NCBI GenBank assembly: GCA_017991615.1
Contig: JAGOQF010000002.1
Coordinates: forward strand, 50,750 to 114,749
Source: Candidatus Shapirobacteria bacterium
Lineage (GTDB): Bacteria > Patescibacteriota > Microgenomatia > UBA12405
Direction: 5' to 3'
Length of the DNA: 64,000 bases
Shown: positions 20,548 through 58,316 of the stretch, in pieces
How positions within the stretch are numbered: the first letter of the stretch is position 1
How the letters are laid out: every line of letters begins with the position of its first letter
The notes under the pieces: generated by a model
The model's input: only the letters and a program-made list of their open reading frames with translations
The model's database searches: none
What the model was told of the DNA's origin: nothing
Translations under genes and position numbers: made by a program

Positions 20548-21402
20548 TTATTTTAACAAAAGAGGTTGACAGCGCGGACAATAAAAAGTCCCCCGACCCC
20601 CAAGACTAATCCTAACAATTGGAGTGTGGCAAACTGAACAAGGTTTGTTTTGACGTTGATAAACACGAAAATGATATTGATGTCGACCAAAACTGCCGTC
20701 GGGACGGATATATTTATTATCCTTGGCAGTGGAGCCACCGTGACGAATAGATTCTTTGATGAGCTTGATAAGATTTTTGTGAAGATTTTTAGCCTGAGAG
20801 AAGGTAAGTTGATTGGCTGGAGTTTGAGGATGGATTTGACTGAGAAACAGAGCATCGTTGGCGTAAATATTGCCAGTACCGGCAAATTTTTGTTGATCAA
20901 GAAGAACAACTTTAATGGGACGACGAGATAATTGAAGCTGGTTAAAAAAATAGGTCGAGGTAAATTTGGAATCTAGGAGATCGAGACCAACAGATTGTTG
21001 AAATTGAGCTAATTTTTTGGGGGTAAATAATTTAGCCCAACCGAATTTGCGTTGGTCGTTGAAATACATAATGGTGCCGTCGGAAAAAGTAAAGACAAGA
21101 CGGGTAGATTTATTGGGAAGATGGGATTTATCTTCCTTGGGAGTAGGATGACCCAAAACCGAGTCACCAAAAATGATTTGACCGGTCATTTTGAGATGAA
21201 AAAGAAGGATGAGATTATTTTTAAGATGAAGGGAAAGTTGCTTACCTAAACGAGAGGTACCAACAATGGTTTGATGTTTAAGCTGTTGAGGTTGACCGAT
21301 AAAAGATTTGGGGGTAAGAACCTCGAGACTGGTAATGGTTTTACCGACGATATTTTGGTCTAAAAACTGACGGACAACTTCAACTTCAGGGAGTTCAGGC
21401 AT
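20548..21402 (-). CDS. mutM: Formamidopyrimidine-DNA glycosylase (Fpg/MutM)
   Basis: 284 aa. N-terminal MPELPEVE (catalytic Pro2/Glu3), H2TH region, and a C-terminal zinc finger CSVCHTPI...CPRCQ. Confidence 0.85.
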   Translation of the reverse strand: MPELPEVEVVRQFLDQNIVGKTITSLEVLTPKSFIGQPQQLKHQTIVGTSRLGKQLSLHLKNNLILLFHLKMTGQIIFGDSVLGHPTPKEDKSHLPNKSTRLVFTFSDGTIMYFNDQRKFGWAKLFTPKKLAQFQQSVGLDLLDSKFTSTYFFNQLQLSRRPIKVVLLDQQKFAGTGNIYANDALFLSQIHPQTPANQLTFSQAKNLHKNLIKLIKESIRHGGSTAKDNKYIRPDGSFGRHQYHFRVYQRQNKPCSVCHTPIVRISLGGRGTFYCPRCQPLLLK

Positions 21403-21497
21403 GGAGATAGTTTATCAAGTTTGTCAAGTTCATCAAGTTTGTCAAGTTCATCAAGTTATAAAGTATAGGAAATATTTTGGATTTTTTAGGGATTGGA
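21403..21497. repeat. 9-bp-periodic tandem repeat (GTTnnTCAA x about 6)
   Basis: gtttatcaa gtttgtcaa gttcatcaa gtttgtcaa gttcatcaa gttataaag read directly. The same family recurs at 37.2, 43.3 and 62.8 kb. Confidence 0.7.
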
Positions 21498-22418
21498 TTA
21501 GATGAGGTCGTCAAGGTCGATGGTGGAGAGGTGTTTGTTTTTGGCTAAATGATCGACAGCCACAGTCATATCGGCGAGATTGTCTTTGATTTCAGAAAAA
21601 GAATTGAGATAGGTTTGAAGAGAACTAGCATAACCCATAACTAAAACGACATCGGAAATTTGCCAAATGTGGGAGTAAACCGAGATGGCACTGTAGGCGA
21701 GAATAAGGGAATAAAAAAAGACGGCGACATTTTGGATAGAAAACCACTCAACAAAGCTCCAGTTGCAGATGCGAGTAAAATGACGAACATAAGCTTTTTG
21801 TTCTAGTTCAACATCGTTAGATTCTTGAAATTTACTGTAATAATTTTCAATTTTAGTGTTTTGAATATCCTTGAGTTTGATGTAACGCTGAGTAGTGTAA
21901 TAGTCGACAATAAAATAAACCAAAATATAACTAATAAAGAGAACTAGAACCCTAATATCAACAAAATAAAGAATAATAGGGATCGTCACCAGAGAAACTA
22001 TAGAATCAATTCCAGGCTGACGAAAAAGAGTTAAAGTCATTTTGCTGGCATCGGCAAAATTGCGGATAGCTTGGATAGTTTGGTTACGTTCTTCTTTGTT
22101 TTTAGTGTGAATATCTTGGGAAAAAAAATTATGAATATCGAAACCAATATTACTGATGCATTGATTTAAAGCTTCAAGAGATTTAAGGCGAACAAAATTA
22201 TCTAAGAGACGAACAATGAAAATCAAAAGAATAAGAAAAAAAACTGAACTAAAAATAACCTGTTTTTCGACTTGATCAATAACCTGAGAATAAAGATAAA
22301 TGGTCAAAAGTGGCAAAAGAGCTGATAAAAAACGAATAAAAACCCAAAATAAAAATCGTTTTTTATCCTGAATGATTTTAAAAATAAGGAATAGAGTAAT
22401 TTTAGTTTTTTTGATCAT
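21498..22418 (-). CDS. Membrane protein resembling an ABC-exporter transmembrane domain (no ATPase domain)
   Basis: 306 aa with six predicted helices. The N-terminus resembles the TMD start of ABC exporters. No Walker motifs. Confidence 0.35.
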   Translation of the reverse strand: MIKKTKITLFLIFKIIQDKKRFLFWVFIRFLSALLPLLTIYLYSQVIDQVEKQVIFSSVFFLILLIFIVRLLDNFVRLKSLEALNQCISNIGFDIHNFFSQDIHTKNKEERNQTIQAIRNFADASKMTLTLFRQPGIDSIVSLVTIPIILYFVDIRVLVLFISYILVYFIVDYYTTQRYIKLKDIQNTKIENYYSKFQESNDVELEQKAYVRHFTRICNWSFVEWFSIQNVAVFFYSLILAYSAISVYSHIWQISDVVLVMGYASSLQTYLNSFSEIKDNLADMTVAVDHLAKNKHLSTIDLDDLI

Positions 22419-22482: not shown

Positions 22483-23430
22483 ATGACAGAAAATAAACAA
22501 ATTTTAGATACATTGATAATCGGGTCGGGTCCGGCAGGACTGACAGCGGCAATTTATAACTCAAGAGCGAATTTAAAAACAATGGTGATTGCTGGCAATC
22601 AACCAGGAGGACAGCTAACCATTACAACCTTGGTGGATAATTATCCTGGCTTCCCTACCGGTGTGGGTGGATTGAAATTGATGATGGATATGCAACAACA
22701 GGTGAAGAATTTTGGGGTGGAAATAAAACAAGGGGTGGTGACGGCGATTAACAAGATTGACGGCTCAGCAAACTTTAGAGTAAAACTGGAAAGCGGAGAA
22801 GAAATAGAAACAAAAACAGTGATTGTAACTACCGGAGCGGCAGTTAAATGGTTGGGGTTGCCTGGGGAAAAAGAATTGATCGGTCGAGGAATCAGCGGTT
22901 GCGCTACCTGCGATGGGATGTTTTTTAGAGGCAAAACAGTGGCGGTGGTTGGTGGAGGAGATACAGCCTGCGAAGAAGCTGATTTTTTGGCGAAAATATG
23001 TCAAAAAGTTTATTTAATTCACCGACGAGACGAATTGAGAGCTTCGGCAACAGAGCAAAAAAAAGTGTTAAACAATCCTAAAATAGAAATTTGGTGGAAC
23101 AGCGAAGTAAAAGGCTTAAAAGGAAAAGAAAAATTGGAGGCAGTGGAGGTGATTAATAATAAAACTCAAGAAAAAAAGGAATTGATTTTGGACGGGTTGT
23201 TTGTGGCCATCGGCAGTCAACCGGCAACAGAATTTTTGAAAGGATTGGTAGAACTAAGCCCAACAGGACAGGTATTAACTGGGGGTGATAAAAATTGGGT
23301 GACTATGACCAGTGTGCCGGGGATTTTTGCTGGCGGAGATTGTGTTAACAACCGTCATAAACAGGCAATTGTGGCAGCAGGAGAAGGTTGCCGGGCGGCT
23401 TTGGATGCAGAAAATTGGTTGAATAGCTAG
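22483..23430 (+). CDS. trxB: Thioredoxin-disulfide reductase
   Basis: 315 aa. FAD motif IIGSGPAGLTAAIY, redox-active CATC, NADPH motif VVGGGDTACEEA. Confidence 0.85.
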   Translation: MTENKQILDTLIIGSGPAGLTAAIYNSRANLKTMVIAGNQPGGQLTITTLVDNYPGFPTGVGGLKLMMDMQQQVKNFGVEIKQGVVTAINKIDGSANFRVKLESGEEIETKTVIVTTGAAVKWLGLPGEKELIGRGISGCATCDGMFFRGKTVAVVGGGDTACEEADFLAKICQKVYLIHRRDELRASATEQKKVLNNPKIEIWWNSEVKGLKGKEKLEAVEVINNKTQEKKELILDGLFVAIGSQPATEFLKGLVELSPTGQVLTGGDKNWVTMTSVPGIFAGGDCVNNRHKQAIVAAGEGCRAALDAENWLNS

Positions 23431-23465
23431 TATCTGGTATTTAGTATTTGGTATTTAGTATAAAA

Positions 23466-24623
23466 CTAACAATTAGAGTTTTTTGAATTCTTAAAGGTTA
23501 GTTGATTTTTTGAAACAAGTTTTTTGATTTTTTGAATAAAGGTTTGGGTGGAGAACTTGGCGGCGCGGGAAATGCAATCAGACGGGTTGATGTTTAATTT
23601 TTGAAATTTTTGGATAGCTTGGGCGCAAGACTGAGGGGTAAGTTGGTCAAAAAAGACACCAGTTTTGCCGTCAATAACGGTTTCAGTGACTCCGCCGCTA
23701 CGGTAAGCAATAACCGGGCAACCATAACTCATTGATTCAACCGGGACGATACCAAAATCTTCCTGATCGGCGGAGAAAATAAAGGCTTGAGCGTTACGAT
23801 AAAGCTGAGATTTAGTCTCTTGATCGACTTCACCAACAAATTCAATGGTGGGTCCGGAAATTTGTTTGAGTTGATTTAAAACTCCGGAAAAATCGCGGCC
23901 AAAAATTTTTAATTTCAAATTGAGCTGATTACAAGCATTGATGGCAATATCAAAACGTTTAGCTTGAGCCAAACGACCGCCAGCAAGAAAGTATTTAGTA
24001 TTTGGTATTAAGTATTTAGTATTTTGAGATTTGGGGAGATCAACGGGGGGATTGATAACGATAGCTTGACGACGATAAAACTTTTGGATACGAGCGGCGG
24101 TAGTGCGAGAATTAGCGATATATTGGTCAACATTTTGGGAATGATGAAAATCGCGAAGACGAAGGAAGTGATTTAAAATATTAATAAAAAATTTAACGAT
24201 AGGGTTTTGGGTAAAACGACGGGCGGTAGGCAGACCGTAGAGATAACGAGGCGGAGTGTGACAATAACAAATAAGTTTGGCTGATTTTTTGTTTAGAGAA
24301 TTGGGAAAATAAGCGCCGGTGGCAGAGGTAATAATAATATCAAAATCAGAAAAATCAAAAGATTTGAAAGCTAACGGAGAAATCAAACGGAGCGGACTGA
24401 TGATTTTGTGAGCAAAGGGAATAAATTTAAAAAAACTTTGATGAATTCGATGATCCCATTTTTGACGAAGACGAGATTGATGAGGACCAAGAGAAGCGGG
24501 ATGATAGATGGATGTAAAAATGGGAGCTTTTGGAAAAATATCAGAAAGAGTTTCTAAAACACTTTCGGCGCCGCCGAACTCTTTGATATAGTCTTGAACT
24601 AGAGCAATTTTAGGAGAAGACAT
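23466..24623 (-). CDS. Glycosyltransferase family 4 (GT-B, group 1)
   Basis: 385 aa. EDFGIVPVESMSYGCPVIAYRSGGVTETV is the GT4 C-terminal EX7E region. Contains an internal copy of an intergenic repeat. Confidence 0.7.
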   Translation of the reverse strand: MSSPKIALVQDYIKEFGGAESVLETLSDIFPKAPIFTSIYHPASLGPHQSRLRQKWDHRIHQSFFKFIPFAHKIISPLRLISPLAFKSFDFSDFDIIITSATGAYFPNSLNKKSAKLICYCHTPPRYLYGLPTARRFTQNPIVKFFINILNHFLRLRDFHHSQNVDQYIANSRTTAARIQKFYRRQAIVINPPVDLPKSQNTKYLIPNTKYFLAGGRLAQAKRFDIAINACNQLNLKLKIFGRDFSGVLNQLKQISGPTIEFVGEVDQETKSQLYRNAQAFIFSADQEDFGIVPVESMSYGCPVIAYRSGGVTETVIDGKTGVFFDQLTPQSCAQAIQKFQKLNINPSDCISRAAKFSTQTFIQKIKKLVSKNQLTFKNSKNSNC

Positions 24624-26525: not shown

Positions 26526-27221
26526 ATGACCACTGATCCATTAAAAATAGCTATAAAAGGGAGTACTCAAGACCATTTACCGATTGAAGATATTGTTGAC
26601 GGAGTGGTGATAATGAAAGACGGATCATGCGCTTCGATTATGCAGATATCATCGGTAAATTTTGATCTATTGTCGGAAAAAGAACAATCGGCGTTGGTGG
26701 CGGCTTATGGGGGAATTTTAAACTCTTTAAATTTTCCGATTCAGATTGTAGTTAAGTCCAGTACTAAGGATGTGGGAGTTTACTTAAAAAGATTATTAGA
26801 AGCGGAAAAAAAACAGACTAATAAGTTACTTAAGGAAAGAATTAAAAACTATCGAAAATTTATTGATGAAACAGTAAAGAAAAATGATGTCTTATCAAAG
26901 ACTTTTTATATAGTAATTAAATTTTCTTCATTGGAATTGGGAATAAAAACAGCGGGAGTTCAAACTATTACCAATTTGTTTAACAAAAAGGTTACTAGTC
27001 TACCCTACCCTAAGGCAGAAATTTTGGAAAAAGCTAAAGCTAGTCTAGAACCAAAGAGAGATCATTTAGTAAGATTATTTTCTAGGTTGGGGTTAGAAAT
27101 AATCCCGCTGACAAATAGACAATCGATTGAGTTGTTCTATAAAATATATAATGAGGAAGTGGCGACCAATCAAAAAATGGAAACAATTAATTATCAAAAC
27201 CCAATAGTTACAACAAAATAA
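26526..27221 (+). CDS. Hypothetical protein (T4SS locus)
   Basis: 231 aa. Directly upstream of and translationally coupled (2-nt gap) to the VirB4-like gene. Confidence 0.35.
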   Translation: MTTDPLKIAIKGSTQDHLPIEDIVDGVVIMKDGSCASIMQISSVNFDLLSEKEQSALVAAYGGILNSLNFPIQIVVKSSTKDVGVYLKRLLEAEKKQTNKLLKERIKNYRKFIDETVKKNDVLSKTFYIVIKFSSLELGIKTAGVQTITNLFNKKVTSLPYPKAEILEKAKASLEPKRDHLVRLFSRLGLEIIPLTNRQSIELFYKIYNEEVATNQKMETINYQNPIVTTK

Positions 27222-27222
27222 T

Positions 27223-29511
27223 ATGTTATTTGGCAAAAAAAATAAAAAAACAACTGAACCGACAGTGGGACAAAAACTGACGGGAACAGATAATAGGCCA
27301 GAAACTGAAGGGAAAAAACCATTTAATGAAGGTTTGGTATCAACAAAGGATATTATTGCGCCAGCGTCGTTGGAGGTGGATTTTAATCATATCAGAATTG
27401 ACAATAAGTACTATCGGACATTATTTGTAGCCTCATATCCGCGATTTGTGGGAATAAACTGGTTGTCATCCCTGATTAATTTTGATGCCACTTTGAGTGT
27501 ATCAATGTATATTTATCCAACTGATGGTAAGGCGATTTTGGACGATTTGAGAAGGAAGATCACTGAGATGGAGGCTGAGATTAGTACTGATATCCAAAGA
27601 GGGCGGATAGTTAATCCAGCAACTCAAGCAAAATTGGAAGATGCGCTGAATTTGCAAGCAGATCTGGTTAAGGGAGAGGAAAGATTTTTTCAATTTGGAT
27701 TATATATTACTATTTCAGCAGACACTAAGGAAGAATTGGATAAGATTAATAAAAATCTAGAAGCAACGTTAGGATCACTTTTAATGGTAAGTAAAAGGGC
27801 AACTTTACAAATGGAAGATGGATTTATTACTGGACTACCAGTAGGTGACGACAGATTGAATATTACCAGAAATATGGATACGACTTCGCTGGCAACTACT
27901 TTTCCATTTGTATCTTCAGATCTATCGGATGATAAGGGAATAATGTATGGAATTAACATTCATAATAGTTCATTGGTAATTTTTGACCGATTCTCAATGC
28001 AGAACTATAACTCAGTAGTTTTTGCAACAGCTGGTGCTGGTAAGTCTTATATGATTAAATTGGAAGTGTTGAGATCACTAATGTTGGGGACGGAGATTAT
28101 TGTAATTGATCCAGAAAATGAATATCGGGATTTAGCAGAAGCAGTGGGAGGTCAATACATTGCTTTTGGTTATGGTGAAGGGTCAAAAATAAATCCATTT
28201 GATTTGTCACTGGTAGAAGAAGAGGGAGAAAATGCTCTAAACAGCAAGGTGTTGTCGATTCACCGATTGATGAAAATTATGTTAGGAAATATGGATCCAA
28301 TGGAAGAGTCAATTCTAGATCAGGCAATGATGGATGCTTATAAAATGAAAGGAATAACTCCGGATCCGACAACTCAAGATAGAGAACCACCATTAATTGA
28401 GGATGTTTATAAATCATTAATTGGGATGGAAGAAGAAAAAGCTAAAATGCTGGCGGCGAGAATGGAAAAATATATTAAAGGTTCATTTGCAGGCATTTTC
28501 AATCAAAAAACAACAATTAATTTAGTAAATCCGTTTGTAGTCTTTGGAATTAAGAATTTAGAGGATAGTTTACGACCGGTAGCTATGAACATAATTTTGG
28601 ACTATATTTGGACGGTAGTTAAAAAGAGTTTAAAGAAAAGAATTTTAGTGGTGGATGAGGCTTGGTATTTGATGCAATATGATGACTCAGCGGCATTTTT
28701 GAGAGGGATTGTAAAACGGGGTCGAAAATATTATCTGGGGGTGACGACAATTACCCAAGATGTAGATGATTTTTTGAAAACTGATTATGGTAAAGAAATT
28801 GTAACTAACAGCGCTATTCAAATTTTATTAAAACAACACGCGGCGGCGATTGATCAAATTGGAGAAGTATTTTATTTAAGTCAAGGAGAAAAACAATTAT
28901 TATTGACGGCCGACAAAGGTCAAGGAATATTTTTCGCCGGACAAAATCATGTGGCAATTCAAGTAATCTCTTCTGAAGAAGAACATAACTTAATTACCTC
29001 CAACCCAGAAGAAGTATTAAATAAGAGAAAAATAGCTACAGAAAAACCAGTAAGACCGGATTTAAAAGAAGAAAAGAAGAATATTACCTCGACCCCCCTA
29101 CCACCGAAACCTGAACCAGTGATGGAAAAAATGGTTGAATCAAAAAAAGAGGCAAATAATGAAATGGATGTAGAAACAATTTTACAAAGGAAAATTGAAA
29201 ATTTGGAACAAAAAGAAAATGAGTTATTGCAAGAAAAAATACCAAAGGGAAAATTTGAAGGAGAAATAAAAATTAATCAATCAAAACCAGAACCAGTTAG
29301 GTTTGTACCACCACTCAAGCCGGAAATAGTTAAACCTGAGGAAAAACAAAAACCAATATTTATTGCTGGAGAAGAAACAAAAGTACCACAACCACCACAA
29401 TTAATTAAAAAACCAACACCGGTTTTTGAAGACAAAAAAGATAAAAATCAATCAGAGGGAGAAAAAAGCGGATTAAATTATGATGATTTGTTTGATAATG
29501 GGATTGTATAA
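27223..29511 (+). CDS. VirB4/TraC/CagE-family conjugal-transfer ATPase with K/E/P-rich C-terminal extension
   Basis: 762 aa. Walker A FATAGAGKSYMIK, Walker B ILVVDEAWYL, and VirB4-like N-terminal region. Low-complexity tail from about residue 590. Confidence 0.75.
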   Translation: MLFGKKNKKTTEPTVGQKLTGTDNRPETEGKKPFNEGLVSTKDIIAPASLEVDFNHIRIDNKYYRTLFVASYPRFVGINWLSSLINFDATLSVSMYIYPTDGKAILDDLRRKITEMEAEISTDIQRGRIVNPATQAKLEDALNLQADLVKGEERFFQFGLYITISADTKEELDKINKNLEATLGSLLMVSKRATLQMEDGFITGLPVGDDRLNITRNMDTTSLATTFPFVSSDLSDDKGIMYGINIHNSSLVIFDRFSMQNYNSVVFATAGAGKSYMIKLEVLRSLMLGTEIIVIDPENEYRDLAEAVGGQYIAFGYGEGSKINPFDLSLVEEEGENALNSKVLSIHRLMKIMLGNMDPMEESILDQAMMDAYKMKGITPDPTTQDREPPLIEDVYKSLIGMEEEKAKMLAARMEKYIKGSFAGIFNQKTTINLVNPFVVFGIKNLEDSLRPVAMNIILDYIWTVVKKSLKKRILVVDEAWYLMQYDDSAAFLRGIVKRGRKYYLGVTTITQDVDDFLKTDYGKEIVTNSAIQILLKQHAAAIDQIGEVFYLSQGEKQLLLTADKGQGIFFAGQNHVAIQVISSEEEHNLITSNPEEVLNKRKIATEKPVRPDLKEEKKNITSTPLPPKPEPVMEKMVESKKEANNEMDVETILQRKIENLEQKENELLQEKIPKGKFEGEIKINQSKPEPVRFVPPLKPEIVKPEEKQKPIFIAGEETKVPQPPQLIKKPTPVFEDKKDKNQSEGEKSGLNYDDLFDNGIV

Positions 29512-32246: not shown

Positions 32247-33368
32247 TTAATCCTGGAGACGGACGGGCATAATTATATGAGTGAAAGAAGGGTCGGATTG
32301 GTCGTGAAAAAAGACAGGGGTAAGATTTTCATTAAGTTTGATCAAAATTTCTTGACTTTTACAGACATTAAGAAAGTCGCTTAAGAACTTATAGTTAAAA
32401 GCAACTTCGAGATTTTCACCTTCGGTTTTGGTTTCAATTTCAATTCGATTCTGACCGACTTGAGGAGCATTGGCAGTAAGTTCAACTGAATTATTTTTAA
32501 TATTCATTTTAACAACATTAGCGGATTCACGAGCAAAGACAGAAGCTAGTTTGACTGATTGAAAAAATTCGTCGCGATTGATAAAGACTTTGGTTTGATA
32601 TGATTCAGGAATAAGTTTTTTGTAGTCGGGAAACTCCCCTTCTATAAGTCGAGAAACTAGCTCTATATCGTCTAGAACAAACATTACTTGATGTTCGTCT
32701 TGAGTAAGACCAATCTTTATTTTTTGATTCGTTTTAGCGAGTTTAGTGACTTCAATTAAACTCCGAGCAGGAATTAAAAAAGTAACTGGTTTGTCAGTTT
32801 TTAAATTAAGAGAATTAACTAATTTAATTTCTTTGAAAGAAAGTCTAAAACCGTCGGTAGAAACCAAGGTAAGTAGATTTTGAGAAAAAGAACATAAAAT
32901 ACCGGTTAAAATCGGTCGAGTATCGTCAGTGGCGGCGGAAAAAGCCATTTGAGAAATAGCTTGACTTAAAATATCTAAATCAATTTCAAAAACAGTATCA
33001 GGATTGATTTGAGGAAATTCAGGAAAATCAGTGGCAGGAGAAGTAGTAAAATCGGATTCAATTTTTGCGGAAGAAACTGAGAGAAGATTATTTTCTTTGA
33101 GAGATAAATCAATTTTACCGGTAGGGAGATAAGAGATAAATTCAGTAATTTCTTTTGAAGGGATAGTAATACTCCCCTCTTGATCAATTTTAGCACCAAT
33201 CCAATAATTAATACTTAATTCTAAATTGGTGGCCGATAATTTGAGTCGACCTTGATCAGTGGAGATTAAAATATTTCCTAAAATAGGTAATTGATTTTTA
33301 GAAGAGACAAAACGGGAAACGTTGGTTAAGGCAAGGTTTAAGTTTTCCTGGAGAAGAGAAAGTTTCAT
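32247..33368 (-). CDS. dnaN: DNA polymerase III beta sliding clamp
   Basis: 373 aa. MKLSLLQENLNLAL...ILGNILI N-terminus, three-domain length, and position downstream of dnaA. Confidence 0.8.
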   Translation of the reverse strand: MKLSLLQENLNLALTNVSRFVSSKNQLPILGNILISTDQGRLKLSATNLELSINYWIGAKIDQEGSITIPSKEITEFISYLPTGKIDLSLKENNLLSVSSAKIESDFTTSPATDFPEFPQINPDTVFEIDLDILSQAISQMAFSAATDDTRPILTGILCSFSQNLLTLVSTDGFRLSFKEIKLVNSLNLKTDKPVTFLIPARSLIEVTKLAKTNQKIKIGLTQDEHQVMFVLDDIELVSRLIEGEFPDYKKLIPESYQTKVFINRDEFFQSVKLASVFARESANVVKMNIKNNSVELTANAPQVGQNRIEIETKTEGENLEVAFNYKFLSDFLNVCKSQEILIKLNENLTPVFFHDQSDPSFTHIIMPVRLQD

Positions 33369-33642
33369 TAATCTAATTATATAAAATTAATAATAAAATA
33401 GTAGTTGTAGTTAGTAGTAATGGTTAATAAGTGAATAAATTTAAAATTAAAGGTAATGATAGGTTAAAGATAAATTTAATGGATGTTGAAAGAGATAATT
33501 AGGTGAAAAATTGAGGGTTTTTTTGAAATTTTGGCTTATAAGTTGAATTGAGATTAGGGTTAGTTTCGGTGGGAAAGATAAAAAATAAATGTGGAAAAGT
33601 TGGTGGATAAGTGAGATAATTTTGTGGATAAATAAAATAAGT
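33369..33642. promoter_or_regulatory. oriC segment (dnaA-dnaN intergenic): AT-rich DUE-like tract plus DnaA boxes
   Basis: TGTGGATAA (perfect, 33623-33631), TGGTGGATAA and TGTGGAAAA variants. About 80% AT. Confidence 0.55.
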
Positions 33643-34983
33643 TTAAAAAGATGATTTTATTTGGTTGATAAGTTTAGTAGTTTGTGGATTAGTGGATAAA
33701 TCTTGGTGGATTTTGTCACGAGCATGCATAATACTAGTATGATCACGACCACCTAAAAGTCGACCAACTTCTTCCAAGGAAAGATTAGCTTCAGTGAGGA
33801 GAATATAAGCGGTTAGATGACGAGCATAGACCAAATCTTTTTTTCGACTGCGACCACAGAGGTCACTAGTTTTAATGTTGAAAGTTTTAGCACAAACAGA
33901 AATAAGATGGCGAGGATTAATTTTGGAGCTAGAAAATGGATTTAAAGAGGAATTTTTGTCAGGATTAAGAAAATTTTGAACAAAACTTAAATCAATGGGA
34001 ATAATTTTTTGAGCGCTGGATTGGATTAAAATTTGTTTAAGCTTACCTTCGATTTCGCGGATATTTGATTCGATATTAGTAGCTAGAAAAGAAATAGCTT
34101 CAGGAGTAATTTGAATTTGAAATTCTTCAGTTTTTTGTTTGATAACAGCGACTCTCATTTCATAATCAGGAAGTTGGATATCAACTGTTAGTCCGCCCAT
34201 AAATCGAGAAACTAGCCGATCTTCAAGGTGGTCAATTTCACTAGGTTTACGATCAGAGGTGAGAATAATTTGTTTACCTTTCATATGAAGGGCATTGAAG
34301 GTGTGAAAAAATTCTTCTTGGGTATATTCTTTGCCAGCTAAAAATTGAACATCATCGACTAGAATACAGTCTAGATTACGATATTTATCTTTAAACTGAT
34401 TCATAGTTTTGGACTTAAGAGAAGCTACAAGTTCGTTACTGAAGGTTTCGGCGGGAAAATATTTAATTTTAAATTGAGGATTGTTTTTGAGAAGTTCATG
34501 ACCGACAGCTTGCATAAGATGGGTTTTACCAACTCCTACCCCACCCCAGATAAAAAGTGGGTTATAAGAGAGACCGGGATTTTTGATAATACCCTGGGCG
34601 GCGGCATAGGCAAAATTGTTACTATTGCCAACAATGAGGGTGTCAAAGGTGAATTTAGGGTGAAGATTATGTTGAAAGGAAGTATTTTTTGGAGTGTATT
34701 CAAATAAAGGAGAGTTAATAGGTGAAGGATTAATTAAAGGTTCTTGAACAATAAATTCAAGAGTATTTTGAGTTTTGGTTTGGTTATCTAGGGCATCTTT
34801 AAAAATTTGGTAGTAGCGTTTTTTGTTGATATCGACCAAATAGGAATTGGGACAGGCTAAAACAGCTTTATTATTTTGGAGGCTGATGAGTTCAGTTTTA
34901 CTAACAAAAGTTTGGAAAACCGCTGGCGCCAAGACAATTTTTAATTCTTCTTGTGTGTTTTTCCAAAGGCGGTTAATATCCAT
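33643..34983 (-). CDS. dnaA: Chromosomal replication initiator DnaA
   Basis: 446 aa. AAA+ Walker A GGVGVGKTHL, Walker B LDCILVDDVQF, and C-terminal DNA-binding helix-turn-helix. Confidence 0.9.
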   Translation of the reverse strand: MDINRLWKNTQEELKIVLAPAVFQTFVSKTELISLQNNKAVLACPNSYLVDINKKRYYQIFKDALDNQTKTQNTLEFIVQEPLINPSPINSPLFEYTPKNTSFQHNLHPKFTFDTLIVGNSNNFAYAAAQGIIKNPGLSYNPLFIWGGVGVGKTHLMQAVGHELLKNNPQFKIKYFPAETFSNELVASLKSKTMNQFKDKYRNLDCILVDDVQFLAGKEYTQEEFFHTFNALHMKGKQIILTSDRKPSEIDHLEDRLVSRFMGGLTVDIQLPDYEMRVAVIKQKTEEFQIQITPEAISFLATNIESNIREIEGKLKQILIQSSAQKIIPIDLSFVQNFLNPDKNSSLNPFSSSKINPRHLISVCAKTFNIKTSDLCGRSRKKDLVYARHLTAYILLTEANLSLEEVGRLLGGRDHTSIMHARDKIHQDLSTNPQTTKLINQIKSSF

Positions 34984-37161: not shown

Positions 37162-37560
37162 TTAAGTTGAAAGTTTGTCAAGTTTATAAAGTTTATCAAG
37201 TTCATCAAGTTGAAAGTTCATCAAGTTTATAAAGTTTGTCAAGTTCATAAAGATCTCAGTTTTTCAGATCTTAGATCCGCCGGTGGGCGGATAGGTCTTA
37301 GAAAAATATTTTAGCTTGACAACATTTTTGTCGTCCTCGCACCTTCGCCAGAAGGCCTCAGCGGCTTGCGGGCGAAAAAATATTGTCGGCGCTAAAATTA
37401 GATTTCAGTTTTTCAGATCTCAGATATCAGGAAAACAATAAAAAAGATTTAAGATTTAAGATGTAAGAATCCGTTGGTGGGCGGATGGGTAAAACGATAG
37501 TTGACTCCCCTGCTGGTGGTGTTTGGGTAGGTTTAGGGGATTTTGTGGTAAGATTGGGGT
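37162..37560. repeat. Composite intergenic repeat locus
   Basis: GTTnnTCAA 9-mers from 37165, two tccgccggtgggcgga-type hairpins, cagatct repeats, an 89-bp TIR element, and gatttaag repeats. All read directly from the sequence. Confidence 0.75.
37309..37397. mobile_element. About 89-bp element with imperfect terminal inverted repeats (copy 1 of 3), MITE-like or structured ncRNA
   Basis: Left end ttttagcttgacaacattttt, right end aaaaatattgtcggcgctaaaa (about 17/21 inverted match). Internal hairpin ccttcgccagaagg. Other copies at 43357 and 62873. Confidence 0.5.
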
Positions 37561-40355: not shown

Positions 40356-43301
40356 ATGGGTGTGGGATTGCCATCAGCATTAATAATAGGAATTGATCAT
40401 TTTGTAGCTAAGAAATTAGCTAAAGAATTAGTGAATAAAGATATTCAAGTGACTGGAGTGGGGCAATTAACTTTGGGTTTTGAGGAAGTAAAAAATTTTG
40501 AATGGAAGGAAAATATAGAAGAAGTGACAGGGGAGTTTAATTATGTGTTTGATTTTGAAGGGGATAAACAAATATGGCAAAGACTGACAGCAGATAAATT
40601 TACGTTAATATCGGTTAATAATGAGGTAAGAAGTAATTATCTAGCTAGAGAAGTGACGGGTTGGGAGGCTGATTGGCGGGTGGTGGATGCTAAAGAAGTT
40701 TATGGGGAAGGGATGGAAGAAAATAGTTTATTGGGAAAAACGTTGATGAGGGCAGTGTTAAACAAAAATTTGGAATTACCAAGTCCAGAGACGAAAATTA
40801 GATTATTGGCAGTAAATGACTTGGTGGAAGCAATTTTAAGAGCTTGTTTTTTGTCAGGGACGGAGAGGGAGTATTTTTTGGTGCTGGGGAAAGAAATTAG
40901 GGTTGAGGAAATGGCAAAAATTTTGATGGATAAGGCGAAAATGACCAGATTTAAAGTAATGGAGACAGGGGTAAAAATTGATCAAGGAAATGAAAAGTTG
41001 GCGGAAGTTAGTGAATCTCAACTAAGATGGCGGGCAGAAATTCCTTTTGAAAAAGGAATAGTGACGACGTTGCAGTATTTCTTTTCTAAGGCGGATGAAG
41101 AAAATCGGCGGGGTAAAAAAACTAAACCAATACCTCAGAAATCGGTAAAAGAAGTTAGACGACGACCGTTTGCGGTGGTGGTGGAGGAGAAAGAGACGGA
41201 AGTGGAAGAAGAAGTAGTGCCGGAGATATTAAAGGAAGATAATAGTAAGATATTAGAGACAAAAGTGACAGTATTTAAAGAGGAGGAGGAAGAGGAATTT
41301 GAGATTCCAAGATTAATTGAGAATAAACAGAAACAGATAGATGAAGTTAAAGAGGATGAGACTTATATTGAAGAGGAGAGTGAAGATTTAGTGAGAATGG
41401 AGACGAAAGAAGTGAATATAAAGGAAGAAGGACAAGATAAACTTAAAGTAAGAAATAAAAAGGTGGGTCGATGGTGGTGGTTGGTAGTGGTAATTTTGGG
41501 ATTATTGATTTTAGTCTGGCCAATAAAACAGTTGTGGATAGTTCGGTCAACAATTGGAGTGATTACTAAAGCACCAGAGTTGATTAGAAATAAAAAATAT
41601 AACCAAGTGGAGGTGGTGGCAGACACAAAAATAAAGGAATTATCGGCGATTGATGAGAAAATAAATGAGTGGGGGTTAAATAGTTTGGAAATGGTGAGAA
41701 ATTATCAAACGGGGATAAGAGTATTAATAGATTTTTTAACAACAGAAAAACAGTCTTTGAATTTAATTAGGACTATGGATGAGATGAGTGAAGCGGTGTT
41801 TGGTGAGAGGGAAATTAATTGGGAAGATCAATTGATAGCCATAGATAGTGGTTTGTTGGAGACGGAAAATAATTTGGGAATTTTGCAAGCAAGATTGTCA
41901 GGTGGGTCGGGGTGGATACCTCGGAAATGGCGAGGGATAATTCAAGAGGGTTTAAAAACAGTTGAGGAGTTAAAAAAGCAATTGAGTTTAGGGAGGGAAG
42001 TGATAAAAATAGCGCCAGAGATGTTGGGTTTGGATGGAAGAAAACGGGAGTATATGGTGTTATTTCAGAATGAATCGGAAATCAGGCCGACAGGGGGATT
42101 TATTGGCAATTATGGGTTGATTAGTTTTCAAAAAGGCAAGTTGATTGGATTTGAAGTTAAAGATATTTATGAAGCAGATGGTCAGCTTAAGGGCCATGTG
42201 GAACCACCTTGGGAGATTAAGACTTATTTAGGGGAAGCTAATTGGTATATGAGAGATGCTAACTGGAACCCTGATTTTGTGAAGACGAGTGCTGATATTC
42301 AGTGGTTTTTGGAAAAAACGACTCAGAAAAAAGTAGATGGAGTGATTGGAATTGATTTGGCGGTAGTAAGATCGATGTTAAAAGTGACTGGACCAGTAAA
42401 GGTGACTGATTTTAAGGAAACAATTGATGAAAATAATTTGTATGAGCAAGCAGAATTTTATGCCGAGACAAAATTTTTTCCGGGTTCGGGACAAAAAGCA
42501 AGTTTTTTGGGAACTTTAGGGAAACAGTTGTTTGAGGAAATTAAGCTGTTGAACACAGAAAAGAAAATGAAGCTTTATCAGGGGTTGATGGAAATGTTGG
42601 AGAGTAATGAGATGCAAATGGCAATAAATAATACAGAAACAGCTAAGGTTATAAATGAGTTGGGTTGGGATGGAAAAATTTATAATGGTAAGTGTGTTGG
42701 AGAAGGTTGTATAACGGATTATTGGTATGTGGTGGAGGCTAATGTAGGGGTTAATAAGGCTAATTATTTTTTGAGAAAAAATATTGAGGAAGGAGTAGAG
42801 TTTGGTGGGGAATCGCTTAATCGGGTAATAAAGATAAATTATGAAAATACAGCCAAAAATACAAATTGGCCGGGAGGGGATTATAAAAATTATTTAAGAA
42901 TTTATTTGCCGAAAGAAGTGGTATTGTCACAGGTTAGTGTGGCTGACGGTCATGATACGACAATTAAAAAAGTTTACAACAGTGAAGAAATCAGGATTAG
43001 GGAAGTTGATGGGAAGAAAGAGGTTGGTTTTTTGGTGATGGTACCGGTGACTAAAAAGCGGATAGTGGAAATAAAATATAGCAGTAAAATTAGTTTAGGG
43101 GATAAAAAAGAGTTTACTTATATGAAATATATTCAGAAACAACCAGGGACAGGCGAAACAGGGCTGGTGAGTTTGGTGTCGTTTGGAGAGGAGTGGCAAC
43201 CGATACAAGTAGAGCCGGTGGCGAGCTTGGTGGGAGGAAAATTGTTGTTTAATCAAAAGTTGAATCGAGATATAAAGATGGGAGTGGTGCTGGGGAGGTG
43301 A
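40356..43301 (+). CDS. Large DUF4012-like protein with N-terminal Rossmann-like region and acidic low-complexity linker
   Basis: 981 aa. The central TM VLFQNESEIRPTGGFIGNYGLI matches the DUF4012 hallmark (xxRPTGGxxGS), common in cell-envelope polysaccharide loci. Confidence 0.5.
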   Translation: MGVGLPSALIIGIDHFVAKKLAKELVNKDIQVTGVGQLTLGFEEVKNFEWKENIEEVTGEFNYVFDFEGDKQIWQRLTADKFTLISVNNEVRSNYLAREVTGWEADWRVVDAKEVYGEGMEENSLLGKTLMRAVLNKNLELPSPETKIRLLAVNDLVEAILRACFLSGTEREYFLVLGKEIRVEEMAKILMDKAKMTRFKVMETGVKIDQGNEKLAEVSESQLRWRAEIPFEKGIVTTLQYFFSKADEENRRGKKTKPIPQKSVKEVRRRPFAVVVEEKETEVEEEVVPEILKEDNSKILETKVTVFKEEEEEEFEIPRLIENKQKQIDEVKEDETYIEEESEDLVRMETKEVNIKEEGQDKLKVRNKKVGRWWWLVVVILGLLILVWPIKQLWIVRSTIGVITKAPELIRNKKYNQVEVVADTKIKELSAIDEKINEWGLNSLEMVRNYQTGIRVLIDFLTTEKQSLNLIRTMDEMSEAVFGEREINWEDQLIAIDSGLLETENNLGILQARLSGGSGWIPRKWRGIIQEGLKTVEELKKQLSLGREVIKIAPEMLGLDGRKREYMVLFQNESEIRPTGGFIGNYGLISFQKGKLIGFEVKDIYEADGQLKGHVEPPWEIKTYLGEANWYMRDANWNPDFVKTSADIQWFLEKTTQKKVDGVIGIDLAVVRSMLKVTGPVKVTDFKETIDENNLYEQAEFYAETKFFPGSGQKASFLGTLGKQLFEEIKLLNTEKKMKLYQGLMEMLESNEMQMAINNTETAKVINELGWDGKIYNGKCVGEGCITDYWYVVEANVGVNKANYFLRKNIEEGVEFGGESLNRVIKINYENTAKNTNWPGGDYKNYLRIYLPKEVVLSQVSVADGHDTTIKKVYNSEEIRIREVDGKKEVGFLVMVPVTKKRIVEIKYSSKISLGDKKEFTYMKYIQKQPGTGETGLVSLVSFGEEWQPIQVEPVASLVGGKLLFNQKLNRDIKMGVVLGR

Positions 43302-43590
43302 GTTTATCAAGTTGAAAGTTTGTCAAGTTTGTCAAGTTCATCAAGTTGTAAGTTTATTTTAGCTTGACAACATTTTTGTCGTCCTCGCACCTTCGTAAAA
43401 TCCACTCAGCGGCTTGCGGGCGAAAAAACATTGTCGGCGCTAAAATTAGATGTTAGATTTCAGATCTCAGGAAAACATTAAAAAAAGATTCAAGATTCAT
43501 GATTTAAGAATCAAGAATAAAACAAATCAAGATTAAGTTTTATAAACAGGATAAATTGATATAGAAATAAGAGAATATGTTAAATTAGGA
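43302..43590. repeat. Composite intergenic repeat locus
   Basis: GTTnnTCAA 9-mers, TIR element copy 2 (43357-43445), and agatttcag/aagattcaag repeats. Confidence 0.75.
43357..43445. mobile_element. About 89-bp TIR element, copy 2
   Basis: Same termini as copy 1. The central 11 nt differ (gtaaaatccac versus gccagaaggcc). Confidence 0.5.
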
Positions 43591-43594
43591 GAAG

Positions 43595-43882
43595 ATGAAA
43601 AAAGTGATGGAAAATTTTAAATGCGAGGTGTGTGGGGCGGAAGTTGAAGGAGACGGGACAACGGATCATTGTCCAAAATGTTTGTGGGGTAAACATGTAG
43701 ATGAAGAGGTTCCTGGTGATAGGGCGAGTATGTGCAAAGGGTTAATGAAACCGATTAGAAGTGAATATAGAAATGGCCAGTTTAGGATTTATTACAAGTG
43801 TCAGAGTTGTAACCATGATTTTTGGGTGAGAGAGGGAGAGGAAGATAATCGGGAAATGTTGGTGGAACTAACTAAATACTAG
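43595..43882 (+). CDS. Small zinc-ribbon protein (hypothetical)
   Basis: 95 aa. Four CxxC pairs (CEVCG...CPKC...CQSCNH). Confidence 0.4.
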   Translation: MKKVMENFKCEVCGAEVEGDGTTDHCPKCLWGKHVDEEVPGDRASMCKGLMKPIRSEYRNGQFRIYYKCQSCNHDFWVREGEEDNREMLVELTKY

Positions 43883-44022
43883 TTTCAATTTCATTCCCGA
43901 TATCGACTGTCGTCTCATCGGGATTGGATTTTAAGGCAAAATTATGTCATTTCATTCCAAATTTTGACCTAAAAATCTCAAAAAGATTCAAGATTTATGA
44001 TTTAAGATTTAAGAATAGGATA

Positions 44023-44316
44023 TTACTTTATTTTTGTGAAACGGGGAACCATTTCACCATTAATTTCTGCAGGGGTTAACCAACCATCTTTGCTTTCTAA
44101 GGAACGAATCCAGATGATATGTTCTGGGTGATTCAATTCTTCATATATTACAACGATAGATTCATTGTCTTCTCTAATACCTAAATCTTTGACTAAATAT
44201 TGACCCCCAGTTTTAGTGTGCTGATATTTAGCACCGACTTCGACTAATTGAGTTGCTTGAGTTAGTTTTTGTTGTAGAGTTTTTCTTTCGGTATGAGCCA
44301 CATTTGATTTTATCAC
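44023..44316 (-). CDS. DUF1653-like small protein
   Basis: 97 aa. YQHTKTGGQYLV...VVIYEE...WIRSLE...PRF pattern matches DUF1653. Confidence 0.45.
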   Translation of the reverse strand: MIKSNVAHTERKTLQQKLTQATQLVEVGAKYQHTKTGGQYLVKDLGIREDNESIVVIYEELNHPEHIIWIRSLESKDGWLTPAEINGEMVPRFTKIK

Positions 44317-44398
44317 CTAATATAGTTGCGGAGTAAATGAGGAGATTGTGCGGTAATTTGAGAGGAGAGGTGTAATAGAGAGATGATATAATCAAAGG

Positions 44399-46321
44399 AT
44401 GAAAATAAGTGAAATGTGGACTAAAAAAAGGAAACCAGATGAGAAGAAGGAACTGGATAAAAAGAATAAAATTGATGAGGAAATATTTAAGAATTTGCCG
44501 CCAGGGGTGAAGATAAAGAAAATAGAAATAGGTCCTAAAAATATAATTAAATGGTTGATTTATATATTTTTGTTTTTGGGATTAATGTCTTTTTTGGGAG
44601 AAGTAATAATGGGATCGACGGTTGATCAGGTGTCGATGTCGGAGTTTATCGATAAAGTGAAAAAAGATGAGGTTAAAAAGGTGATGGTGTCGGATAATGA
44701 GATTGTAGCTGAGTTGAATGACGAACAAAAAAAGTTATTAGTGACTTCAAAAGAGCCAAATATTTCTTTAACAGAGATATTGCAAAAAGAAGGAGTAGAT
44801 TTGGCGAGTGTAGATTTGGAAGTTAATAATCGTCAGGGGTGGAAAATGATAGGAGAAATATTGGGATTAGTGTTGAGTGTAGGAGTACCGATTTTGTTTA
44901 TCATTTGGATTTTGAAAAGGCAAAGTGGTGGTGGGGCTGGGGGGATGTTTGGGTTCGGTAAGTCGACAGCCAAATTGTTTGTCAAAGGTAAACAAAGTGT
45001 GACGTTTAAAGATGTGGCTGGAGTTAAAGAAGCTAAAGATGATTTGATGGAAGTGGTAGATTTTTTGAAACATCCAGAAAAATATCGAAAAATGGGGGCC
45101 AGAGCGCCGAAAGGTGTTTTGTTGGTGGGGCCAAGCGGGGTAGGAAAAACATTGTTGGCTAAGGCAGTGGCAGGGGAGGCGAATGTACCGTTTTATTCAA
45201 TGGCAGGGAGTGAATTTATGGAGATGTTGGTAGGAGTGGGAGCTTCAAGAGTCAGAGATTTGTTTGGGACGGCTAAAAAAGCCGGTAAGGCGATTATTTT
45301 TATTGATGAAATTGATGCGATTGGACGGATGAGAGGAGGAATTGATGGTGGTCACGGGGAAAGGGAACAAACTTTGAATCAAATTTTGGTAGAAATGGAT
45401 GGATTTGAAGCAAATACGGCGGTGGTAGTGTTGGCGGCGACCAATAGGGGTGATTTGTTGGATCCGGCATTGTTGAGACCAGGAAGGTTTGATCGAAGAG
45501 TGGTGTTAGAGATGCCTGATTTGGAAGCCAGGAGGGATATTTTAGCGATTCATGCTAAAGGGAAACCATTTGAGGAAGAAGTAAATTGGGAGTCAGTGGC
45601 GAAAGGTACAGTAGGGTTTTCGGGGGCGGATTTGGAAAATATGTTGAATGAAGCAGCGATTGCGGCGGCTAGAGCCAATAAAGAAAAAATTAGTCGAGCG
45701 GATATTGATGAGGCGGGATTGAAGGTAAAACTGGGGTCAGAAAAGAAAAGAAATCAGAGCGAGGAGGATAAATTGATGACGGCTTATCATGAGGCAGGAC
45801 ACGCAATTGTAAATTTTGTAGAAGAGTTGGATCCGGTATCAAAGATATCGATTGTGTCTCGGGGAATGGCATTGGGGTTTACCTTGGTGCCGCCACAAAA
45901 AGATGTGATTCATAAGACAAAGGGAAAATTGATTAAACAAATGGCGATGGCGATGGGGGGTCGAGCGGCGGAGGAGATTGTGTTTGGGGATATCACCACT
46001 GGAGCGGCATCAGATATTTCTCATGTAACTAATATAGCCAGAAATATGGTGGTGGAGTGGGGAATGAGTGATTTGGGGCCGGTGAATTTGGGGCCACAAA
46101 TTGATATTAACGATTTTGGACGAGCTTATATGGAACCAAGTAAGGTGTCGGATAAAATGCAGGCATTGGTAGATGAGGAGATTAGGAAATTGGTGGCAAA
46201 AGCCTATGATGAGGCTAAAAAAGTGTTGGTAAAAAATAGAAAAAAGCTAGATAAAGTAGCAAAAGTATTGGTGGAAAAGGAAAGTTTGGGACAGGAAGAG
46301 TTTGAGGAGTTGATGAAGTAG
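44399..46321 (+). CDS. ftsH: ATP-dependent zinc metalloprotease FtsH
   Basis: 640 aa. N-terminal TM pair, AAA Walker A GPSGVGKT, SRH, and zinc motif HEAGHAIV. Confidence 0.85.
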   Translation: MKISEMWTKKRKPDEKKELDKKNKIDEEIFKNLPPGVKIKKIEIGPKNIIKWLIYIFLFLGLMSFLGEVIMGSTVDQVSMSEFIDKVKKDEVKKVMVSDNEIVAELNDEQKKLLVTSKEPNISLTEILQKEGVDLASVDLEVNNRQGWKMIGEILGLVLSVGVPILFIIWILKRQSGGGAGGMFGFGKSTAKLFVKGKQSVTFKDVAGVKEAKDDLMEVVDFLKHPEKYRKMGARAPKGVLLVGPSGVGKTLLAKAVAGEANVPFYSMAGSEFMEMLVGVGASRVRDLFGTAKKAGKAIIFIDEIDAIGRMRGGIDGGHGEREQTLNQILVEMDGFEANTAVVVLAATNRGDLLDPALLRPGRFDRRVVLEMPDLEARRDILAIHAKGKPFEEEVNWESVAKGTVGFSGADLENMLNEAAIAAARANKEKISRADIDEAGLKVKLGSEKKRNQSEEDKLMTAYHEAGHAIVNFVEELDPVSKISIVSRGMALGFTLVPPQKDVIHKTKGKLIKQMAMAMGGRAAEEIVFGDITTGAASDISHVTNIARNMVVEWGMSDLGPVNLGPQIDINDFGRAYMEPSKVSDKMQALVDEEIRKLVAKAYDEAKKVLVKNRKKLDKVAKVLVEKESLGQEEFEELMK

Positions 46322-57107: not shown

Positions 57108-57464
57108 TTAATTAGAGTCGATTTTGAATATGGTGACATCGATACCGGTAAATTCTTTGATGAAAAGAAGGATTAACCAGGAAACAATGATGCCAATAAT
57201 ACCAATGACAGCGTAGGTGAGGGTGGTGGAAGCGGCAGCAACTTTTTTGGGGTCGCCGCCAGAGGTGAGATATTTGAAACCGCCGACGATGAGCATGGCT
57301 AAGGAGACGAAGCCGGCAAGGCTGACAATGACAGTAATGATGTTTTGAAAAAGACATTCAAGGCCTTTGATGGTGGCGACACCGTCGGAAACACAATTGC
57401 CAGACCAGGCTTTAGTTTGGGCTAGTGCGGGGTGAGGTAAAAAAAATTTGATGATTGAATTCAT
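57108..57464 (-). CDS. VirB2/TrbC-like mini-pilin paralogue 1
   Basis: 118 aa. Signal-like N-terminus, two hydrophobic helices separated by a conserved GGFKYLTSGGDPKKV loop. Paralogous to the five downstream genes. Confidence 0.5.
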   Translation of the reverse strand: MNSIIKFFLPHPALAQTKAWSGNCVSDGVATIKGLECLFQNIITVIVSLAGFVSLAMLIVGGFKYLTSGGDPKKVAAASTTLTYAVIGIIGIIVSWLILLFIKEFTGIDVTIFKIDSN

Positions 57465-57487
57465 AAATTAATTATACAATAGACCAA

Positions 57488-57516: not shown

Positions 57517-57530
57517 AAAGATAACTAATT

Positions 57531-58315: not shown

Positions 58316-58316
58316 A

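Follow-up and report, generated by a model that had tools for sequence, protein, structure and literature searches.

Hairpin elements of about 90 nt following genes in Candidatus Shapirobacteria, a candidate transcript-boundary signal

We analyzed a 64,000-nt stretch of a Candidatus Shapirobacteria genome (contig JAGOQF010000002.1, positions 50,750 to 114,749; hereafter, the window) and found that a short repeat present in it three times belongs to a family of ~90-nt hairpin elements that is conserved across Candidatus Shapirobacteria (Microgenomates) and was previously unannotated. Members share a long covarying hairpin, lie on a single strand, and mostly begin shortly after the stop codon of a co-oriented gene. 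On balance, we favor the interpretation that this lineage-specific hairpin family acts in RNA as a transcript-boundary signal; we infer RNA-level action and boundary function from the position of the elements and from strand-specific wobble pairs. In a comparison of FtsH proteins, the genomes nearest to the window were labeled Candidatus Woesebacteria or Shapirobacteria, lineages of the candidate phyla radiation (CPR).

Three copies of the element in the window

The three copies lie on the + strand at 37309-37397 (copy 1), 43357-43445 (copy 2), and 62873-62958 (copy 3), where a preliminary description of the window had placed them. The 5' 20-mer TTTAGCTTGACAACATTTTT was found at exactly three sites in the window with up to three mismatches allowed, compared with 0.02 expected (0 of 100 shuffles reached three), and the 3' 16-mer ATTGTCGGCGCTAAAA had three exact matches, at the three copies. 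In the alignment, the ends are identical over 22 nt (ATTTTAGCTTGACAACATTTTT and ATTGTCGGCGCTAAAATTAGAT), and identity extends beyond the ends first assigned, by one base (A) on the left and into TTAGAT on the right. Alignment and folding both bore out the earlier observation of an imperfect inverted repeat of ~21 nt at the ends; the pairing of its two arms includes two U.G pairs and is interrupted by a single bulged base and one C.A mismatch. That only the center differs was correct for copies 1 and 2, whose differences are confined to an apical block of ~11 nt and one further base, but not for copy 3, which has diverged across most of its interior (~positions 23-70) and in which the supposedly conserved internal block reads cagcgttgcggggggaaaa instead of cagcgGcttgcgggcgaaaaaa. 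Copy 1 carries an apex of type I (CCUUC-GCCA-GAAGG), and copies 2 and 3 share, as had been noticed, an apex of type II (CCUUCGUAAAAUCCAC in copy 2), which in copy 3 is combined with a diverged inner stem.

Every copy folds as a single long hairpin (+ strand z-scores, -2.8 to -4.1). The covariance model described below matched the three copies at 37306-37397, 43354-43445, and 62870-62958 with 106.6, 106.9, and 70.4 bits, respectively. A filter-free scan with this model detected no further copies in the window and none within 10 kb on either side, so that the copy number is low, with three copies in ~84 kb.

A conserved family with covarying stems

Homologs were sought in 72 related species loci fetched around ftsH, with Peribacteria and Clostridiales loci as controls; the L-numbers used below denote loci or contigs from strains, close relatives, or other species. 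Short-word BLAST revealed diverged copies in other species, and a covariance model was then built from 16 copies. At E < 2e-4, the model identified 38-39 members in 26 of the 72 related species loci, all 39 on the same, G-rich strand, and no members in the Peribacteria and Clostridiales control loci; a second-generation model (R2) added none. Rfam 15 detected only six tRNAs in the whole window and nothing in seven related loci, and relaxed Rfam scans, run on copy 1 and a type IV member, gave only chance-level snoRNA and lncRNA matches; a known RNA family was therefore rejected for lack of any Rfam match. A two-sided pattern scan gave no match in genome contigs and three in viral contigs, all by chance within GC-rich coding DNA. 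The same kind of scan in metagenomes returned five contigs only, all from close relatives, which added three loci (one in L014/L016 and two in L015/L017/L018), all within mosaics similar to those described below. A search of the literature on RNA motifs, terminators, and repeats of CPR, Microgenomates, or Shapirobacteria found nothing relevant.

The stems of the element are maintained by compensatory substitutions. In an alignment of 38 members scored over the 31 pairs of the model, with slid and shuffled controls, standard pairs occupied 85.9% of the cells, and changes on both sides were observed at 27 of 31 pairs (155 cells), compared with 7-12 pairs and 13-34 cells in the slid controls; 0 of 500 shuffles reached the observed value. 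The compensatory signal was already visible in the hand-built seed alignment, and RNAalifold, run without a supplied structure, recovered stems P1-P3, with compensatory changes at 17 of its 18 predicted pairs. Examples include GACAAC/TTGTC versus GATAAC/TTATC, UCGUCC/GGGCGA versus CAGUGC/GCGCUG, and AGC/GCU versus GAC/GUC. These results support a structured RNA whose closing stems are conserved and whose loop varies, one of the two possibilities raised in the preliminary description, which had proposed folding and covariation analysis as a check.

P1 is an outer A/U-rich stem of 7 bp followed by a one-base bulge; P2 is formed by YUGAYAAYA-UUUUU paired with AAAAA-UAUURUC; and P3 is GC-rich, spans 6 bp, and includes a conserved U.G pair. 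These stems are separated by an internal loop (CUCRCR ... CUCRG ... CUUGC) from a variable apex, which occurs in at least five discrete types common to several loci and species. P4 and the apex are weakly supported. The predicted P1-P3 helix of ~27-30 bp has a length compatible with an RNase III processing site (~20 bp or more of nearly continuous double-stranded RNA). U.G pairs are kept at fixed positions in 26 of 38 and 25 of 38 sequences, and G.U cells outnumber A.C cells by 107 to 40, compared with 142 to 90 in shuffled alignments. The GC skew of the window is strongly positive throughout (+0.2 to +0.6), yet on this G-rich strand the element is C-rich, with a C fraction of 0.237 and a G fraction of 0.188; it thus resists the local mutational bias, which suggests selection.

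Position relative to genes and promoters

Copy 1 occupies the spacer between jag/khpB, which directly precedes it and whose RNA-binding product has KH and R3H domains, and an O-antigen-ligase-like gene (wzy), with dnaA 2.3 kb away. Copy 2 separates a DUF4012 gene from an RNHCP gene, and copy 3 starts 92 nt 3' of tRNA-Ile(GAT). When neighboring genes were labeled by BLASTP against the window proteins, members were found in orthologous spacers of species whose FtsH proteins are only 69-80% identical. The jag>wzy spacer contains a member in four species (the window species and those of L023, L024, and L046), the DUF4012>RNHCP spacer in eight (the window species and seven others), the RNHCP>ftsH spacer in nine, the spacer after ftsH in four, and the spacer after clpB in one. 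The spacer between the Polysacc_synt gene (wzx) and DUF4012 is filled in eight species and empty in the window.

Outside the window species, 21 of 33 members follow a co-oriented gene closely, beginning -4 to +22 nt from its stop codon (median gap, 15 nt), and many begin 0-7 nt after it. The next gene is 12-488 nt away; these 33 matches are not independent, since most come from one + strand gene cluster. Over the whole family, 36 of 39 members are co-oriented with the upstream gene. For five members located between convergent genes, a role in a 5' untranslated region or promoter is excluded. Between the element and the next start codon, -10-like boxes are found, namely TGGTATAAT before ftsH and TAGAAT, TATAAT, or TAAAAT before RNHCP. 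A putative extended -10 box of wzy, TGGTAAGAT, assigned by resemblance to the consensus, lies on the + strand at 37546-37554, 3' of the first composite, and the same motif is conserved in L023, L024, and L046, again 3' of the jag>wzy member. Located after a stop codon and before the -10 box of the next gene, the element occupies the place of a terminator. Canonical intrinsic terminators were not enriched at 30-50 kb of the window (4 found versus 7.2 expected).

Tandem-array mosaics around the copies

In the window species, each copy is embedded in a composite mosaic whose modules follow the order A, B, H, element, C, D. Module A consists of tandem 9-mers (AAGTTYRTC), B of AGATCTCAG-type units, C of TTAGATGTCAG-type units, and D of 7-mers (AAGATTY), while H is a 17-nt GC hairpin (ATCCGCCGGTGGGCGGA). 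All of the arrays located here are on the + strand. Around copy 1, the space from the jag stop codon to the element holds ~9 tandem A units (37164-37252), B units (37251-37274; AGATCTCAG ... AGATCTTAG), and an H module with the short GC-rich hairpin ATCCGCC-GGTG-GGCGGA (37275-37291); 3' of the copy are a C array (37398-37437; TTAGATTTCAG TTTTTCAG ATCTCAG ATATCAG GAAAACA), a D array of 3.6 AAGATTT units (37444-37468), and a second H module (ATCCGTTGGTGGGCGGA, 37469-37485). Around copy 2, the A array (43301-43356) abuts the element directly, and a C array (43446-43477) and a D array of 4.6 AAGATTC units (43485-43516) follow. The third composite begins right after tRNA-Ile with an A array (62781-62822), continues with B units (2.7 copies of AGATCTC) and an H module at 62821-62853, of which H occupies 62837-62853, and has a C array (62959-63005) after the copy. 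The H module has three matches in the window, all within composites (0.02 expected); two of these bracket copy 1, and a similar bracketing is seen in L015. When a whole composite is folded, the hairpin of the element still forms.

As reverse complements, the A units TTTGTCAAG and TTTATCAAG exactly match two variants of the 5'-arm core of the element, CTTGACAA, found in the window (arms at 37315, 43363, and 62879), and CTTGATAA, found in other species. On the minus strand of the window, 7 of 8 sites of CTTGACAA fall inside A arrays. Possible explanations for the A arrays are that they act as decoys for pairing, that they are repeated sites for protein binding, or that they arose from an arm by slippage.

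The preliminary description had asked whether element and 9-mer arrays always co-occur and thus form one unit. They do so at every copy in this genome, but relatives bear the element without flanking arrays, which are absent from most other element-bearing species, and arrays also stand alone at 21409-21457 (A) and 43983-44014 (D, AAGATTY); array and element are hence separable. The solitary A array at 21409-21457 (AGTTYRTCA x 5.4, + orientation) is flanked by two minus-strand genes, with the start of an fpg/mutM-like gene (20548-21402) on one side and the stop codon of the next gene (21498-22418) on the other, showing that arrays keep to the G-rich strand regardless of gene orientation. A member at L015 8919-9010 was considered as a filled version of this site; the comparison is void because the flanking proteins are not orthologous.

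Several further repeats were observed. A second interspersed family, GGATTGGATTTTAAGGCAAAATTATGTCATTTCATTCCAAATTTTG, occurs at 43920-43975 in the window, where it is followed by the solitary AAGATTY array (43983-44014), and at L015 8663-8708 and L018 3490-3535; in related contigs it adjoins hairpin elements. Other intergenic short-period arrays (TAGTATT or AGTATTT 7-mers, TAGATCG) are located at 23428-23461, 23990-24024, and 6398-6423 of the window, and in another species TAAGTAG-type arrays adjoin hairpin elements (L026 ~8880-8940 and 9515-9560). Short tandem arrays in spacers seem to be a trait of the clade.

Strain variation and homogenization within genomes

The window species is present in many metagenomes, in which copies 1 and 3 are invariant; copy 3 is identical in six further strains. 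Copy 2 is absent from two strains, L002 (16609-16998) and L009 (9460-9834), compared with 43297-44326 of the window. In these strains the whole 1-kb segment has been replaced, and a diverged RNHCP gene is joined to DUF4012 by TAAatttATG; the second repeat family and a minus-strand DUF1653 gene are also missing, and the flanks are 92-100% identical to the window. The absence of copy 2 is therefore a segment replacement and offers neither a clean empty site nor an excision.

At least six copies at different loci of the window species group are 83-99% identical and have identical 22-nt ends. Over the model columns, mean identity is 0.88 among copies of the window species, 0.71 among copies within other genomes, 0.67 for the same spacer in different genomes, and 0.63 for different spacers in different genomes. 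This higher identity within genomes than across them points to homogenization or recent copying within genomes. The element keeps its position across species and is also homogenized within genomes, most strongly in the window lineage, and homogenization is the sole property in which it resembles repeats of the repetitive extragenic palindromic (REP) type. None of the six copies of the window species group is flanked by target-site duplications, a check that had been suggested from the outset; their left flanks are unrelated (..AAAAT, ..AGTTT, ..ATAAC, ..AAAAC, ..ACAAC), while the right flank is always (T/C)AGATNTYAG.

A transcript-boundary signal and its alternatives

In the interpretation that we favor, the element would be transcribed on the gene strand as the 3' tail of the upstream gene and would mark a transcript boundary. 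It may do so by a factor-assisted stop or pause of transcription, as an RNase III-type processing site, or by shielding the upstream mRNA from 3' exonucleases, and in each case the promoter of the next gene would be insulated. Several observations weigh against this interpretation. The stem is followed by no U-tract, and a terminator scan was blank at the three copies; among 38 members, stems terminate in an A-run, and the 8 nt that follow have a T fraction of 0.51. The element is thus not a canonical intrinsic terminator, which we rejected as an identity. Nor is it the general terminator of this genome, since only 3 of ~60 genes in the window bear it. Two members depart from the usual placement, one lying antisense between two genes (L015 8919-9010) and one between divergent open reading frames (ORFs; L065). 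Because all members are on the G-rich strand and most are in one + strand cluster, orientation to transcription and orientation to replication are inseparable. The minus strand folds at least as well (z-scores over both strands, -2.8 to -5.4), and the apical 45 nt, conserved in sequence, are not thermodynamically stable (z ~0). Covariance-model alignments are biased toward the structure of the model itself. Finally, part of the G.U excess is compositional, the + strand being G/T-rich, and three positions show recurrent A.C mismatches, which would be G.U pairs on the minus strand; for these two reasons, the wobble evidence favors the + strand only moderately.

The inverted-repeat ends had originally suggested a miniature inverted-repeat transposable element (MITE), and more broadly the copies could be a nonautonomous mobile or recombining repeat, of the MITE or REP type, that is copied in trans and whose RNA structure is a by-product of its inverted repeats (~21 nt, imperfect). 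Copying would explain why at least six loci carry copies 83-99% identical with identical ends when orthologous copies elsewhere are much more divergent, why identity is higher within genomes (0.88 and 0.71) than at the same locus across genomes (0.67), and why occupancy varies, as at wzx>DUF4012, filled in eight species and empty in the window. The mosaics with other repeated modules likewise recall REP units in bacterial interspersed mosaic elements (BIMEs). The absence of target-site duplications, the single orientation, and the absence of a transposase from the window, which had been reported before and holds among its ~55 ORFs, leave the MITE reading unsupported. A mobile repeat in general is opposed by a constant right flank beside unrelated left flanks, by 39 of 39 members on one strand, by positions kept across species with FtsH only 69-80% identical, and by stems that compensate instead of decaying. 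No transposase, integrase, or REP-associated tyrosine (RAYT/Y1) transposase was found among the ~55 window ORFs, the sole strain-level absence (L002, L009) is a segment replacement, and the copy number is low. We consider a mobile repeat unlikely, although it is the most plausible of the alternatives.

The elements might also act as DNA and in a strand-specific way, with a role in replication, nucleoid organization, or regulation. They could be palindromes bound by a protein, cruciforms, or hairpins that form in single-stranded DNA of the G-rich strand, presumably the leading one. A DNA-level element would accommodate the confinement of all members to the G-rich strand, including the one at L015 8919-9010 that is antisense to both neighbors, and the constant strand of the A arrays whatever the gene orientation (21409-21457). 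Since the A 9-mers are exact reverse complements of the 5'-arm core, a TGTCA/TGACA motif recurs as direct repeats plus one inverted copy, in the manner of repeated protein-binding sites; DNA hairpins tolerate G.T wobble pairs, and dnaA is 2.3 kb from copy 1. A DNA-level role leaves the tight placement at co-oriented stop codons (21/33) unaccounted for, and compensation extends over ~30 bp that include nonconserved sequence, where a protein-binding site would conserve the sequence and not the pairing. The arrays are missing in most other element-bearing species. No change in the sign of the GC skew was found in the window, including dnaN-dnaA (32247-34983), or in the 10 kb upstream (L100), so that the skew does not switch at dnaA within this range and provides no link to an origin. 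We consider a DNA-level element improbable. Still less probable, and in our judgment very unlikely, are genes for small regulatory RNAs (sRNAs), or sRNAs derived from 3' untranslated regions, in which the stem would be a protein-binding scaffold and the apex a target-recognition loop. Conserved closing stems combined with at least five discrete apex types common to loci and species would suit such RNAs, as would an apical sequence that is conserved without stable structure and could be a single-stranded seed, and copy 1 lies right after jag/khpB with its KH and R3H domains. Against this, no promoter lies upstream and no terminator follows, and many members start 0-7 nt past a stop codon, inside what would have to be the upstream mRNA. 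Nor did target complementarity come to light, no search aimed at it having been made.

Other identities were rejected on specific grounds. A sigma-70 promoter within the element was dismissed because the TTGACA of the 5' arm has no -10 partner and is replaced by TTGATA or CTCGAT in relatives. A DnaA-box cluster or origin is not supported, as the 9-mers agree with TTATCCACA at no more than 6 of 9 positions and no GC-skew switch is present in the window or the 10 kb upstream. A CIRCE-like operator was rejected because the outer TTAGC...GCTAA of the element is not conserved in relatives. An integron attC site was rejected because the ends TTGACAAC ... ATTGTCGG do not match the R''/R' core sites (RYYYAAC ... 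GTTRRRY) and no integrase is found in the window; moreover, the genes around the elements are core genes, among them jag, ftsH, and clpB. A diversity-generating retroelement or retron was set aside because no reverse transcriptase was found in the window.

A more specific version of the boundary signal can be proposed. The element, a 90-nt hairpin conserved in sequence, would be a CPR-specific, factor-dependent signal that replaces canonical terminators around a conserved envelope/proteostasis cluster. In the window species, the upstream 9-mers, as exact complements of the hairpin 5' arm, could tune hairpin formation by serving as decoys for pairing or as repeated binding sites. We regard this version as speculative and give it a low probability, below that of a mobile repeat and above that of a DNA-level element. 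If it were true, it would represent a new kind of tunable terminator or processing switch made from tandem repeats.

Comparison with known repeat systems

The closest analogs of the Shapirobacteria element are the enterobacterial repetitive intergenic consensus (ERIC), REP/BIME, and Correia repeats, and it is a member of none of them. ERIC sequences, also called intergenic repeat units (IRUs), are imperfect palindromes of ~127 bp that occur in both orientations in transcribed intergenic regions of enterobacteria. The Shapirobacteria element is likewise an imperfect palindrome of ~100 nt with low to moderate copy number, located between co-transcribed or adjacent genes, able to fold as an RNA hairpin, without target-site duplications, and kept across related species with internal variable or inserted segments. 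It differs from ERIC in having no sequence similarity to it and a host in another phylum, the CPR, and in being strictly one-stranded and near stop codons, with documented compensatory substitutions.

REP units, known from Escherichia coli and its relatives, are 20- to 40-nt palindromes whose GTAG head is conserved; they are tied to RAYT (Y1) transposases and have been reported to stabilize upstream mRNA and to affect translation when near a stop codon. As with REP/BIME, the Shapirobacteria elements are extragenic, mostly after gene 3' ends, homogeneous within species, and combined in mosaics with other short motifs, a role played here by the H, A, B, C, and D modules. In contrast to REP units, the core is ~90 nt with a conserved internal loop and no GTAG head, and no RAYT is encoded in the window; the 17-nt H hairpin is closer to a REP unit than the 89-nt element is.

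BOX elements of Streptococcus pneumoniae are also intergenic and modular, and conserved modules enclose tandem subunits that vary in number. Their subunits are 45-59 nt long and unrelated in sequence, whereas the units of the Shapirobacteria mosaics are 7-9 nt long and flank the hairpin instead of forming it. Correia repeat enclosed elements (CREEs), or Neisseria miniature insertion sequences (NEMIS), resemble the Shapirobacteria element in their size (~100-150 bp), inverted-repeat ends, conserved core, and location next to genes. Correia elements carry TA target duplications, number in the hundreds, are inserted in either orientation, can create promoters, and bind integration host factor. 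None of this is seen for the Shapirobacteria element, which has neither target duplications nor a sigma-70-type promoter. Transcribed CREE hairpins bind RNase III, which cleaves or protects them, and the expression of adjacent genes is altered (PMC2649163). Such RNase III action is the kind of mechanism proposed above for the Shapirobacteria element. With intrinsic terminators, finally, the element shares its location right after a stop codon and before the next promoter, and also between convergent genes; it differs in lacking a U-tract and in having a ~30-bp stem whose sequence is conserved between loci and species, unlike that of ordinary terminators.

Other features of the window and related loci

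Just 5' of ftsH (44326-44356), a conserved direct-repeat motif was observed, which reads gttgcggagtaaatgaggagattgtgcggtaa in the window and TTGCGGA(A/G)TAAA...N...TT(T)GCGGA in most species, being present in L023, L029, L032, L035, L065, L073, and L087. It resembles an operator. Extended -10 boxes (TGnTATAAT, TAGAAT, TAAAAT) lie only 5-7 nt before the ATG in the window (44384-44401) and at the RNHCP starts of L023, L026, L033, and L046, suggesting leaderless or near-leaderless ftsH and RNHCP mRNAs in this clade.

Three regions (11830-14598, 26526-29511, and 57108-59334) contain two DNA methyltransferase genes (N6_N4_Mtase, D12 class) on either side of an unannotated ORF, together with a set of genes resembling those of conjugation or type IV secretion systems (TraC-like, VirB4/TraG-like ATPase, and several type IV secretion system pilin genes). 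About 6-8 kb past the end of the window (L098 16427-18163), a Big_2 gene is followed by a gene-free stretch of ~4 kb, which in one strain contains an ORF for a LAGLIDADG endonuclease and is probably an rRNA operon with an intron; introns in rRNA operons are common in CPR bacteria.

Implications

CPR bacteria (Patescibacteria) cannot be grown alone, and to our knowledge almost nothing is known about how their transcripts end, are processed, or are insulated from one another. A conserved, strongly covarying hairpin that directly follows stop codons in dozens of Shapirobacteria species and is absent from Rfam is a testable candidate for a lineage-specific transcript-boundary signal in these organisms. 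It is, moreover, a structured element that is fixed in position across species, homogenized within genomes, and, in one lineage, wrapped in tandem-repeat mosaics. Such mosaics bear on the origin of REP/BIME-like repeats.

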